Origin: a virus
Taxonomy: Duplodnaviria > Heunggongvirae > Uroviricota > Caudoviricetes
Reading direction: 5' to 3' (one strand)
Virus record (IMG/VR): IMGVR_UViG_2534681835_000028
Span: 1-15,745 of that record
DNA length: 15,745 nucleotides
Position numbers: made by a program. Shown piece after piece: positions 12,001-15,000 of this stretch. Numbering within the stretch: the first letter of the stretch is position 1; each line of letters begins with the position of its first letter.

Positions 12001-15000
12001 AACCTGCCTGATATCCGCAATCCGCTTTTCCGAGAACCAGAACTCAAACTGTACCGTCGGGTCATAAACGGCAAGATGCGGCGTGGCGGTTATCTGAAAA
12101 TAGCCCGGCGTCAGCTCAATCCGCGACGGTGCTGCCGGTGCGGCAATCCGGAAGGTGGTGGTGGCAGGTTCACCCTGCTGGCCATAGCTGTTTATCGCCC
12201 GCACCGTCAGGGTGTATTCCCCGAGCGGCAGGCCGCTGAAACGGTGCTCCGTGTCTGCGGTGATGGCGGTGGTCACCAGTCTGGCATCCGTTCCCTTACC
12301 ACTGGTCAGGCGCAGACTGAAGCGCACGCCCTTCACCACCCGCGGCGTGTCCCATTTAGCCTGCGCCAGATACTGGCCGTCAGCTGCACTCACCTCCACC
12401 GTCAGGTGCTGTACTGCCGGTGGGATGACGCTGTTCAGGGAACCTGACTGCGGCTCAAAGCGGGCACCGTTATCCACGATGGCTTCTTTTTCCGGTACGT
12501 GCTGCACCGCCGTGATGGCAAAGGTGCCGTCCGTGTTTTCCCGGACGGAGACACAGCGGAACAGGCGACGGCGCAGTGACGGCAGGGAGAGTCCCCACAC
12601 CCCGTATGTCTCCACACCATCAGGCAGGGTACTGACCTGTATCCGGTCCGGCGCGGGGTGTGCGGTGATGTCCACACTCACCGGCTTACCGCTGCCGTTA
12701 ATCAGGTTCACCGCCGATGTACCTGTCTCCGGCAGGGTAACCTCACGGTCCAGCGTCAGGGTGCGGGTGGCAGCATCAATGGACAGGACACGTCCGCCGG
12801 TCAGGGTCCCGGCATAGTCATTATCACAGATTTCAATAATGTCACCGGGTGTGTGCCGCAGCCCCTGAGACCCGAGCGTGAAATCCACCGTCTGCGTTTC
12901 CAGCAGTCCGGTCTTTATCACCCACAGTCCGGCACGGTGGGCCTGACCGCGGCTGGTACAGCCGAACGCGTCCATCTTCAGCAGGTTGCGTCCGTAGCGC
13001 AGTATGGCTTCCGGGTCTTCCACCAGTTCCGTGGAGGTCTGCCAGCCGTTCTGCGGGTCGGTGTAATTCACCTCCACCGCCGTGTGCCGGTCCTTCAGGG
13101 CACTGAAGCTGTAGCGGAATCCCACGCCGTTATCATCCACCACCACATCGCAGTTGGTGTACGGCCACACCACATCCGACGGGCGGTCCTGAACGAACGT
13201 CAGCGTCTGACCGTTCCATACCGGCATACAGCGCATCGCAGAGCAGAAATCACTGAGAACGTCCCACGCCTTACGCTGTTGTGCCAGGTACGCATTAAAG
13301 GTCATCCGCGGCTCGGTCCCCCCGAAACCATCCGGGACCGTCTGGTCGCAGTACTGCCCGATGGCATACAGCGCCCACTTGTCCACATCCGCCGCCCCCA
13401 GACGTTTTCCCATGCCGTAGCGCGGGTGAGTCAGCATGTCCCACAGACACCAGGCCGGGTTGTTGCTGTATGCCGGTTTCAGACTGCCGTCCCAGATACC
13501 ACTGTACGTGCGTTTTTCCGGGTCATAGTTTGACGGCACCTGGATGATGCGACCGCGGATATGGTAGTTCACCGTCATCTGCTGGCCGCCGAACTGCTCC
13601 GCATCCACCTGCAGCCCCACAATGGCCGTGTTCGGGTAGCACTGTTTCACATCGATGATTTCGGTGTATGACGACCACAGCGTCTTATTCTGCAGCTGGT
13701 CCGTGGTGCTGTCCGCCGTCTCCCTGACCATCCGGATGTTAAAGGGCCGGGGAGGCAGATTATCCAGAATCACCGAGGCCAGGAACTGTGAGGTGGTCTT
13801 GCCGTTAATGGTGACGTCCTTTTCTGTCACCCAGTTACCGTTACGCTGTAACTGAATCAGCAGGCGGACGGATGCCGGGTTACGGTCACCCTTTGAGGTG
13901 GTCTCCACCAGTGACTGCACCCCGAAGGTAACCCGCAGGCGGTCAATGTTCGCGGACGTAATGGTGCGCGTCACCGGTTTTGCCTTCGTCACTTCCACGC
14001 CCAGTCCGGTTTCAGCTCCGGAGGACTCAAAGCCTTCCGGTGGTGTCTGCTCCTGCTCCCCGGCGCGCCAGACCGCGGTCACACCGTGTATCACGGGATT
14101 GCCGTCCGTGTCCGTCAGTGGGGTTTTGTTCACCAGAATACTCTGCAGTCCCTTCACCGGACCTTCTATCGGTCCCTCACCAATCGCATCAATCACACTC
14201 ATCATCTGCGTGGATTTGAGATTATCCTTCGCCTCACGAGGCGTGTGTGCCTTACCGCCACCTTTTCCCATACAGCCTTCCCCTGAATAAATTAACCGCC
14301 ACTTGCCATTCCGTACAGAAGTCGGATATCCTTCGCCCGAAAAGCATGAAACACATTTCTGCCATGCTAAAGAGAAACCCCGGTATCAGCAGATACCGGG
14401 GTTTTCTTTCATGCCCACCGATAATCCTGTTGGTTAAAACCGGTAATGGCATAAAAATTCTGAATATCTTCACATTTTCACACACTGACTGTGGCGCTTA
14501 TAATTTCGCTGCGTTAGTGTTTTTTTGCCCGAGTAACAAAAACAACTCCTTAACATTGATCTTCATTTGTCTGTCCCCGCAGCTCCGCGATCACTGCGGG
14601 ATTTTTTTATGTTTTATCCCTGTCGCCCGACAACCACGACCGTTCCGCCCCCGCCTTCATCACGGGTGCTGATGTCCTGGGATATACGGCGGGAGCCAAC
14701 CAGCATTTCCCCGTAAGGCACCGGCATCGGGTTCCCTTGGGCAATCATGTTATCCAGCGAGGAAAAGTACGTGTTCTGTCTGCCGTTATCCGTTGCGCGG
14801 TAATCCGGTGTTTTTGCCTTCGGGGCCAGCATCTGGGCCACACCGCCCAGAATCATGCTGGCTCCAAGTGAAAACAGCATCGTGGTGGCAGAAAAACCAC
14901 CGGCTGCCAGGGCTGAACCCCATAACGCCATTGATGCCCCGGCAGTGAAGAAAGAGCCCACGATGGCTGCCGCCCCCAGCACAATCTGCAGTCCGCCCTT

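Follow-up and report, generated by a model that had tools for sequence, protein, structure and literature searches.

Organization of the region between tail genes I and J

In the window (the whole 15,745-bp stretch of DNA analysed, from the Caudoviricetes record IMGVR_UViG_2534681835_000028 of IMG/VR), the ORF list places gene J at 10798..14271 and gene I at 14614..15294, both on the minus strand, and these coordinates bear out the original prediction that the 342 bp separating them are non-coding. The I product matches Lambda_tail_I in Pfam, and in RefSeq genomes with identical DNA the flanking genes are named gpJ and tail assembly protein; among the matches listed for this identical DNA, no feature is annotated inside the gap. 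The features discussed below are as follows.

14272..14613, no strand: I-J intergenic region, 342 bp, non-coding, between the J start codon (14269-14271, minus strand) and the I stop codon (14614-14616, minus strand)
14272..14447, no strand: left module "type B", 176 bp, not shared with E2348/69 or with the majority of Stx phages, where I and J lie about 240 bp apart
14303..14332, plus strand: weak promoter-like site from the promoter scan, TTGCCA, 18 bp, TATCCT; 9/12
14375..14404, no strand: strong hairpin, core CCCCGGTATC/GATACCGGGG at 14378-14387/14392-14401, AAA/TTT extension, loop AGCA, T-rich runs on both strands
14448..14476, plus strand: conserved promoter-upstream element GCATAAAAATTCTGAATATCTTCACATTT, holding a CRP-like site, TCTGA-N6-TCACA, at 14459-14474
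14477..14504, plus strand: putative sigma-70 promoter, -35 TTCACA at 14477-14482, 16-bp spacer, -10 TATAAT at 14499-14504; 11/12; predicted +1 at about 14511
14515..14520, plus strand: second -10-like hexamer TAGTGT, TAnnnT in 14 homologues by an alignment read by eye; its +1 would be about 14527
14526..14608, plus strand: PasB sRNA as published (83 nt), allele A27, assigned by probe match and 82/83 identity to E2348/69
14546..14565, plus strand: inferred seed, nt 21-31 (CUCCUUAACAU; CUCCUUCACAU in EPEC) and nt 33-40 (GAUCUUCA), with the polymorphic base at 14552 (position 27)
14576..14608, plus strand: intrinsic terminator and likely Hfq-binding 3' end, stem CCCGCAG/CTGCGGG at 14576-14582/14594-14600, U7 at 14602-14608

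The gap had been described as a single insert between genes that abut in lambda. The lambda genes are in fact separated by 60 bp, and alignments, in which homology with the other type of I-J gap begins near 14448, indicate that the 342 bp are a mosaic of a PasB cassette (14448-14613) and an unrelated 176-bp left module (14272-14447). A hint from a contaminant contig of a second cassette copy at the start of the window was rejected, as positions 1-381 are an IS3-family element, which does not resemble 14200-15745.

Identification of the unit as PasB

Judged by sequence identity, the unit between I and J is the known prophage sRNA gene pasB in its commonest allele (A27). The Northern probe for PasB, AATCCCGCAGTGATCGCGGAGCT, matches the minus strand exactly at 14581-14603, with no match in 200 shuffles, and positions 14526-14608 are identical at 82 of 83 nucleotides to the 83-nt PasB of enteropathogenic Escherichia coli (EPEC) E2348/69 (NC_011601 1466343..1466261, minus strand). 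The sole difference is A for C at position 27 (14552 in the window), which is where Zhu et al. (bioRxiv 2026) place the A/C difference between PasB and PasB-2. Synteny agrees as well: in E2348/69, I ends at 1466255 and J starts at 1466496, PasB lies between them on the opposite strand, and the distance from its 3' end to the I stop is 5-6 nt in both placements. The two copies share promoter, terminator, U7 tract, orientation, and I-J position; they differ in the DNA upstream, which in E2348/69 is about 75 bp with a different hairpin as against the 176-bp module and 13-bp hairpin of the window.

PasB was found in 2021 by Pearl Mizrahi et al. (Sci Adv; PMC8550237) in prophage PP6 (E2348CN_0006) of EPEC O127:H6 E2348/69, where it was seen between I and J by RNA-seq, RIL-seq, and Northern blot (Table S6) and was assigned a U-tract of 7 (Table S5). 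A recent preprint surveyed its distribution and stated that its function is not elucidated (Zhu, Shabalina & Storz, bioRxiv 2026). The original prediction of an sRNA gene that runs antisense to the tail operon and stops just short of the 3' end of I therefore matches published experiments on a 99%-identical copy; that the unit was uncharacterised does not hold, since it had already been named. It looked new because RefSeq annotates nothing under the listed gap matches and Rfam 15 has no match in the whole window at gathering thresholds; at E-value thresholds, Rfam returned only unrelated, terminator-like, sub-threshold matches in 14150-14750.

The published data refer to the C27 allele of E2348/69. 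Its stability is Hfq-dependent, with log2 fold changes of -6.8 and -2.4 in an hfq mutant, and its level is higher in overnight static LB (non-activating) than in virulence-activating medium (PMC8550237). RIL-seq assigned it 37 partner RNAs, and it occupies the second position in at least 98.7% of its chimeras; the authors found no target motif common to its partners (PMC8550237). The 3' module of the window allele is identical to that of E2348/69 PasB. Identical copies of the window allele are present in EDL933 and in Sakai prophage Sp12 (about 2217645-2217727, within a gap of identical DNA at 2217392-2217732). A search for transcript data on these copies found none; the supplementary tables of Tree 2014 and Waters 2017 (Hfq-CRAC, RNase E-CLASH) have no entry at the Sakai locus.

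Promoter, upstream element and transcription start

At a cut-off of 11/12, the promoter scan of both strands of the 15.7-kb window yields the TTCACA/TATAAT pair and nothing else. Dinucleotide shuffles contain on average 0.2 such sites, at least one being present in 17% of shuffles, and taken alone the score is only suggestive. The elements and spacer are those originally proposed, and the coordinates given then (14478-14505) were one base too high. The -10 box is kept as xATxAT in the alignment of 14 divergent homologues.

The published 5' end (14526) lies 22 nt past the TATAAT box instead of the usual 7. If TAGTGT served as the -10 element, +1 (about 14527) would fall one base off the published 5' end, which we infer only from the alignment. 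An RNA of about 95 nt starting near 14512 had been predicted; the published size is 83 nt, but a start near 14512 does follow from TATAAT and is possible for a primary transcript. The 5' end may be either 14511 or 14526/7; starting at 14511, the primary transcript would measure 98 nt.

The promoter-upstream region with the CRP-like site is the best-conserved part of the cassette. Both half-sites are invariant in the 14 homologues and variation is confined to two central spacer positions, while the sRNA bodies of the same homologues go down to about 71% identity. The core agrees at 9/10 positions with the CRP consensus TGTGA-N6-TCACA, with a chance expectation of 0.46 such sites per window; FNR was rejected as the factor for this dyad in a by-eye consensus comparison (6/10 for FNR versus 9/10 for CRP). 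Canonical CRP activating positions are -41.5 (class II) and -61.5 and further helical turns (class I). The centre of the candidate site would be at -44.5 (+1 at 14511) or -60.5 (+1 at 14527), neither of which is canonical for activation. The invariance of the site suggests that cAMP-CRP would control PasB through it, and this is the weakest step of the mechanism that we propose. Spot 42 is a CRP-repressed sRNA. In the data set in which PasB was found, its condition pattern is opposite to that of PasB (PMC8550237).

Terminator, RNA structure and coding potential

The predicted terminator stem at 14576-14600 was borne out, as was its T7 tail (14602-14608), which ends 5 nt short of the I stop codon. 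RNAalifold analysis of 10 homologues gave an invariant 7-bp terminator stem as the whole of the consensus structure, with no covariation, and structure hence adds no evidence either way. PasB folds into an unstructured body followed by the terminator hairpin. In a single-sequence fold of the 98-nt version, a 5' hairpin forms by pairing of a U-run with an A-rich run and is absent from the consensus fold.

It was also considered that the locus might encode a small protein on the tail-gene strand, with the plus-strand signals being incidental. There is a minus-strand ATG ORF of 22 aa (14498..14566, MKINVKELFLLLGQKNTNAAKL), and in PhiR12_1 and 1720a-02 the homologous stretch bears annotated short CDSs of hypothetical proteins. 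But the ATG becomes ACG in several homologues (CAT to CGT on the plus strand), indels of 1, 2, 5, and 8 nt fall inside the ORF, and a plus-strand RNA is documented experimentally (PMC8550237), all of which makes this explanation extremely improbable. Between promoter and terminator, the plus strand has no complete ORF of 20 aa or more, as predicted. Because such indels accumulate while promoter and terminator are kept in 14 homologues, the body appears to be non-coding, and with the loss of the start codon we rejected a small-protein reading on either strand.

The left module and its hairpin

Of 5426 E. coli genomes, 1446 have the left module, 1442 of 1451 records showing at least 99% identity; it occurs in just 13 phage records, PPompW prophages included. 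It carries the strong hairpin, originally described as a perfect 12-bp stem with a T-rich tail at 14376-14410; the hairpin is confirmed, and its extent is now a 10-bp core, or 13 bp with the A:T pairs, at 14375-14404. On the minus strand it has a folding energy of -25.4 kcal/mol (z -6.2), and on the plus strand the interval 14339-14410 reaches -31.9 kcal/mol (z -6.9). Lying upstream of the PasB promoter, it resembles an intrinsic terminator that would work in both directions. A simple terminator scanner did not flag it, which we ascribe to the ability of the stem to reach into the T-run. The other type of gap has its own, different hairpin in the corresponding position, which scores as a terminator on the strand of the tail genes.

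A speculative alternative is that the left module encodes a second sRNA of about 70 nt (about 14339-14405, plus strand), transcribed from the TTGCCA/TATCCT site to the hairpin. About 40 nt separate the 9/12 promoter-like site from the very stable hairpin downstream, which is followed by UUUUCUUU, the predicted RNA would consist of a 5' stem-loop and a terminator with the plus-strand energy and z-score given above, and the module is almost invariant in the genomes that carry it. But the promoter match is weak and at chance level (3 found versus 0.8 expected), conservation cannot be judged in a module without sequence variation, the best plus-strand Rfam match (STnc310) scores 19.4 bits against a threshold of 40, and a two-way terminator insulating the PasB promoter and J explains the hairpin equally well. 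We consider a second sRNA quite unlikely.

Distribution and divergent alleles

Of 5426 E. coli genomes, 1813 carry the PasB cassette (14448-14613), among them those of O157:H7 Sakai and EDL933 and of extraintestinal (ExPEC) isolates; one strain can have as many as 11 matching places. In the comparison of I-J junctions that had originally been suggested, all homologues examined have the cassette in one and the same place, antisense to the tail genes, with upstream DNA of differing types. More divergent I-J alleles occur in VT1-Sakai, Stx2c phages, PhiR5_1, JLK-2012, 1720a-02, and Lys8385Vzw, with the same cassette design and position as in the window. They keep the upstream element, the -10 box, the CTGCGTTA motif, the terminator stem, and the U-tract, while their bodies are only 71-82% identical, with indels and different predicted seeds and, in some, a displaced 5' arm of the terminator.

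Predicted seed and targets

The seed was mapped by simple complementarity, using a local-complementarity dynamic programme and a hexamer profile, with the EPEC allele and nine RIL-seq partners picked from the best-supported of the 37. The best complementarity falls in nt 21-42 for all nine partners. For the EPEC allele the hexamer-complement sum is 38, compared with 7.5 +/- 3.5 for random sets, none of 500 of which reaches 38, the seed interval having been picked after the profile was seen. In per-target shuffles, the observed score is reached in at most 2 of 100 shuffles for three of the nine partners only. The predicted pairing sites overlap start regions in five of nine.

Position 27 lies inside the inferred seed, and target choice should shift with it: with A27, about 6 kcal/mol of predicted pairing energy is lost in three of the five duplexes tested and 3.5 kcal/mol in a fourth, and in the A27 allele the first half of the seed stops matching the targets of the EPEC allele.

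Proposed mode of action

We propose that the sigma-70 promoter of PasB would be active in a lysogen, in which the tail operon on the opposite strand is silent, and that transcription would end at the intrinsic terminator 5 nt before I, yielding an RNA of 83 to 98 nt with an unstructured body and a U7-tailed terminator hairpin that would bind Hfq. This RNA may then pair in trans with target mRNAs through nt 21-40, often across the Shine-Dalgarno sequence and start codon (predicted for napF, yijD, caiF, tolC, and a prophage gene). Because the predicted sites often span these elements, translational repression would be the most likely effect. Altogether, it is very probable that the unit is an A27 copy of pasB, an independently transcribed I-J moron of a lambdoid prophage whose Hfq-binding RNA acts in trans via nt 21-40.

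Another explanation is that PasB serves the phage mainly in cis. On induction, the late tail mRNA would run through this region with perfect complementarity to PasB over 83-98 nt, and pairing, RNase III, or polymerase collision could tune J or uncouple J from I; conversely, the late tail-operon mRNA would soak up PasB. The same spot and antisense orientation in every homologue, with the terminator adjoining the I stop, are consistent with this, and in both gap types the stretch from PasB to J has, on the strand of the tail genes, a hairpin that resembles a terminator, suggesting that crossing transcription matters. A fixed position is, however, also expected from descent of a single moron insertion, and 255 nt lie between the end of PasB and the start codon of J, leaving the J ribosome-binding site uncovered. 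Furthermore, the body varies freely among phages although any sequence would be complementary in cis, which leaves the conserved AUCUUC and the trans partners unexplained, and RIL-seq in a lysogen gives many trans partners (PMC8550237). A role mainly in cis is accordingly rather unlikely, and we prefer action of PasB in trans.

Relationship to other prophage sRNAs

HnrS (EcOnc10/11/12) is a multicopy sRNA of EHEC prophages that represses hha (PMC13502914). Like PasB, it is Hfq-associated and located among late genes of lambdoid prophages, with several copies per genome, one per prophage, and it acts at the ribosome-binding site; unlike PasB, it has a length of 66 nt and occurs almost exclusively in EHEC and EPEC. 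Membership of the same family was rejected, as EcOnc10 is located at Sakai 2234239-2234287 (Sp12, beside ECs_2255), between the lysis genes and the small terminase subunit and not between I and J. AgvB, AsxR, and PasA/PasC/PasD resemble PasB in being Hfq-binding prophage morons with their own terminators. Identity with AgvB or AsxR was rejected because those genes lie at the PR' moron site (the Q/PR'/lysis region) of Stx-type prophages; the Rfam models RF02702 and RF02703 have no match in the window. AgvB and AsxR are sponges of core sRNAs, whereas there is no evidence of sponge action for PasB.

Implications for prophage biology

As a discovery the unit carries little weight, having been named and validated by Northern blot in 2021 and surveyed for its distribution in 2026, but the case does illustrate that a true sRNA gene can be recovered by a reader from sequence alone. 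What we propose to add is a seed at nt 21-40, the location of A27 within it, the mosaic nature of the gap, and the conserved CRP-like upstream region. The cassette is very common, being found in a third of complete E. coli genomes, yet has no assigned function, and the proposed seed, the ribosome-binding-site targets (napF, yijD, caiF, tolC), the seed polymorphism, and the CRP-like site are cheap to test. A broader reading, which we put forward tentatively, is that the I-J spacer is a variable-seed sRNA cassette with a common, possibly cAMP-CRP-responsive promoter and an Hfq-binding terminator, in which the C27A change would retarget the RNA and the left module may carry either a second sRNA or a two-way terminator insulating J. 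If this is true, prophages could each connect a seed of their own to one common regulatory input.

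The small RNA unit between tail genes I and J

Read on the minus strand, the window is a lambdoid prophage's tail end, in which Lom and the tail fibre were also confirmed by Pfam. The original prediction had placed a 342-bp gap between I and J, which is borne out by the ORF ends at 14271 and 14614, but the statement that I and J abut in lambda does not hold, since 60 bp lie between them there. In identical RefSeq DNA, the flanking genes are named gpJ and tail assembly protein, and the gap is unannotated among the matches listed.

Features of the I-J gap and flanking genes
10798-14271, minus strand: J (longest ORF)
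14272-14613: I-J gap, 342 bp
14375-14404, both strands: second hairpin, very stable (z -6.2 and -6.9)
14459-14474: CRP-like site TCTGA-N6-TCACA, 9/10 match to the CRP core, in the upstream element
14477-14504, plus strand: promoter TTCACA-16 bp-TATAAT (scanner, 11/12)
14515-14520, plus strand: weaker second hexamer TAnnnT, kept in all homologues (alignments read by eye)
Stem ending at 14600, then T7, plus strand: terminator (scanner)
14614-15294, minus strand: I (longest ORF; Pfam-confirmed)

The promoter, terminator and second hairpin are all present, within one base of the positions originally predicted. The promoter is the sole site scoring at least 11/12 across the 15.7-kb window; shuffled windows contained a mean of 0.2 such sites (at least one in 17% of shuffles), and the match is suggestive alone and convincing only together with conservation.

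Pearl Mizrahi et al. (2021) mapped the 83-nt PasB of EPEC E2348/69 to prophage PP6, on the minus strand of NC_011601 (1466343..1466261), with E2348C_1436 and E2348C_1437 on either side (PMC8550237, Table S6). Its Northern probe, AATCCCGCAGTGATCGCGGAGCT (PMC8550237), matches window 14581-14603 exactly, and the whole RNA aligns to 14526-14608 with a single difference at position 27 (A in the window, C in EPEC), where PasB-2 departs from PasB (Zhu et al. 2026). In E2348/69 the flanks are a tail assembly protein (ending at 1466255) and gpJ (starting at 1466496). At least 99% identity to the window's cassette was found in 865 records, with the O127:H6-type allele in a class of 62, and the E2348/69 sequence is reported not to be the commonest variant (Zhu et al. 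2026). Judged by the probe match, alignment, flanks, record counts and that report, the unit is pasB, a known gene, and its allele is apparently the commonest. The proposal of an uncharacterised sRNA was thus right as to the sRNA, given the alignment and probe match, but not as to its novelty, as PasB was published in 2021. HnrS (EcOnc10-12), likewise a multicopy sRNA of prophage late regions, was rejected as unrelated because it maps to a different locus.

Published behaviour and 5' end of PasB

In Hfq RIL-seq of EPEC, PasB is among the most connected accessory-genome sRNAs: 37 interactions were recorded, and at least 98.7% of the chimeras have PasB as their second RNA (PMC8550237). Northern blotting bore out its size, and its stability is Hfq-dependent, with log2 fold changes of -6.8 (activating) and -2.4 (non-activating) in an hfq mutant; in contrast to PasA, PasC and PasD, its level is higher in overnight static LB, the non-activating condition (PMC8550237).

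The TATAAT box predicts a +1 near 14511 and an RNA of 98 nt, whereas the published 5' end, derived together with the 3' end from RNA coverage and approximate Northern band size, corresponds to 14526 and 83 nt (PMC8550237). The originally predicted length of about 95 nt from about 14512 therefore agrees with the TATAAT prediction but not with the published RNA. The hexamer at 14515-14520 predicts a start at about 14527, and the discrepancy might reflect either two promoters in use or processing of a longer RNA.

Conservation and a candidate CRP site

In an alignment of 14 homologues, the best-conserved segments are GAATAAAAwTTCTGAAnnTCTTCACATTT upstream of the promoter, the -10 box (xATxAT), GC(G/A)TTA, the terminator stem and the U-tract. 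The sRNA body is variable and has indels of 1, 2, 5 and 8 nt, so that it cannot be coding, and the invariant terminator stem is the sole structure predicted by RNAalifold. Both half-sites of the CRP-like site are invariant among these homologues, with variation confined to the central spacer; a 9/10 match is expected by chance 0.46 times per window, and the spacing to the promoter is not canonical. Spot 42 is repressed by CRP, and its condition pattern is opposite to that of PasB in the same data set. Considering this pattern and the conserved site, CRP control of PasB is reasonable but unproven, with 14459-14474 as the candidate site.

Mosaic structure and distribution

The original prediction treated the gap as one insert. 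Comparison of I-J junctions shows instead that the gap is a mosaic of the PasB cassette (about 14448-14613) and a left part of 176 bp. Of 5426 complete E. coli genomes, 1813 carry the cassette (5544 places, up to 11 per genome). It is also present, at 74-100% identity, in 147 phage records, many of which are Stx1, Stx2a and Stx2c phages. The left part is shared by 1446 genomes and by no more than 13 phage records, with at least 99% identity in 1442 of 1451 records; in most phages the I-J gap is instead about 240 bp long and its left part is a different one. The type of left module and the allele of the sRNA body are freely combined; in FDAARGOS_1280, for example, the window's left module is joined to a PhiR5_1-type body.

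In both gap types, the PasB promoter and J are separated by a strong hairpin (14375-14404 in the window; 469-492 in the comparison sequence L003). That of the 240-bp type is scored on the tail-gene strand as an intrinsic terminator; that of the window type has T-runs beside it on both strands. Within the late tail operon, a terminator placed directly before J would be tolerable only under Q antitermination.

A species scan with the exact pattern of the promoter element (one genome per species) gave hits only in E. albertii and three very small contigs, at least one being clearly E. coli prophage contamination. This agrees with the restriction to Escherichia and Shigella reported in the PasB literature. 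Sequences labelled Streptomyces flavalbus (NZ_JBHTEB010000006.1; 3.4 kb, 59% GC, 96.8% identical to window 12329-15741), Parendozoicomonas haliclonae (81% identical to part of the window) and Asaia platycodi (a 546-bp contig whose IS part is 96.6% identical to the window) appear to be E. coli contaminants of the assemblies concerned.

Neighbouring genes

Gene I as the longest ORF has 226 aa (14614-15294, ATG at 15294); on identical DNA RefSeq has a tail assembly protein of 582 bp (193 aa) that shares a 4-bp overlap with K, and the true start is probably internal. J is intact in the window (1157 aa). In EDL933 and Sakai Sp12, J is frameshifted or split into three CDSs beside a PasB gap identical throughout except for one G deleted at 14374, immediately 5' of the hairpin; the sRNA cassette is thus kept in prophages with decaying tail genes.

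Window 1-381 is the end of an IS3-family element, and a 108-aa ORF (1..327, minus strand) reads like an IS629/IS1203-type OrfA transposase; in the Asaia-labelled contig this IS sequence adjoins the PasB promoter motif. Downstream of the tail fibre, 800-7102 is an effector cargo region, typical of exchangeable EHEC/EPEC effector loci.

Features of the cargo region
800-1450, minus strand: NleG-family gene
2957-3547, minus strand: IpaB/EvcA-family gene
3730-4377, plus strand: NleG-family gene
5853-6200, plus strand: Mutator-family transposase fragment
6743-7102, minus strand: NleF-like fragment

A second 9/10 CRP-core-like match (TTTGAATCCTATCACA, 3650-3665), some 65 nt before the start of the NleG gene at 3730, may be due to chance.

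Seed, targets and the A27 allele

PasB partners, taken from the non-activating PasB block of Table S3, include E2348C_2648, the napF 5'UTR, map, the nlpD-rpoS region, hflX and fabR, as well as bfpB, raiA, caiF, tolC, rplX and others, and no target motif was reported (PMC8550237). For nine of the best-supported partner regions, extracted from NC_011601, the top local complementarity fell within PasB nt 21-42 in all nine. The hexamer-complement profile peaks at nt 21-31 (CUCCUUCACAU) and nt 33-40 (GAUCUUCA), with sums of 38 for nt 21-37 (7.5 +/- 3.5 in random window sets) and 66 over all positions (18.7 +/- 5.4), neither reached by any of 500 random sets. In per-target shuffles, the observed score was reached by at most 2 of 100 shuffles in only three of the nine partners.

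With napF, PasB forms 16 consecutive base pairs spanning the GGAAGG Shine-Dalgarno sequence and the GUG start codon, and the 'fabR' site pairs without mismatch for 11 bp over the ribosome-binding site of yijD, which lies downstream. In caiF, tolC and 'E2348C_2648' the sites lie across start regions too; that of 'E2348C_2648' is in fact the start of the next gene. Such geometry is usual for translational repression by Hfq sRNAs, from which we infer that PasB may act as a repressor. A27, the window allele, lies in the middle of the first seed and costs about 6 kcal/mol in the napF, yijD and caiF duplexes and 3.5 kcal/mol on RS14200, leaving tolC unaffected; by these duplex energies, it probably has a partly different target set.

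The sRNA reading was right but the element was already known, and its function has not been elucidated (Zhu et al. 2026). Of continuing value are this unassigned role, the predicted seed and targets, the polymorphic base in the seed, a possible input from CRP and the left module, which is unexplained.
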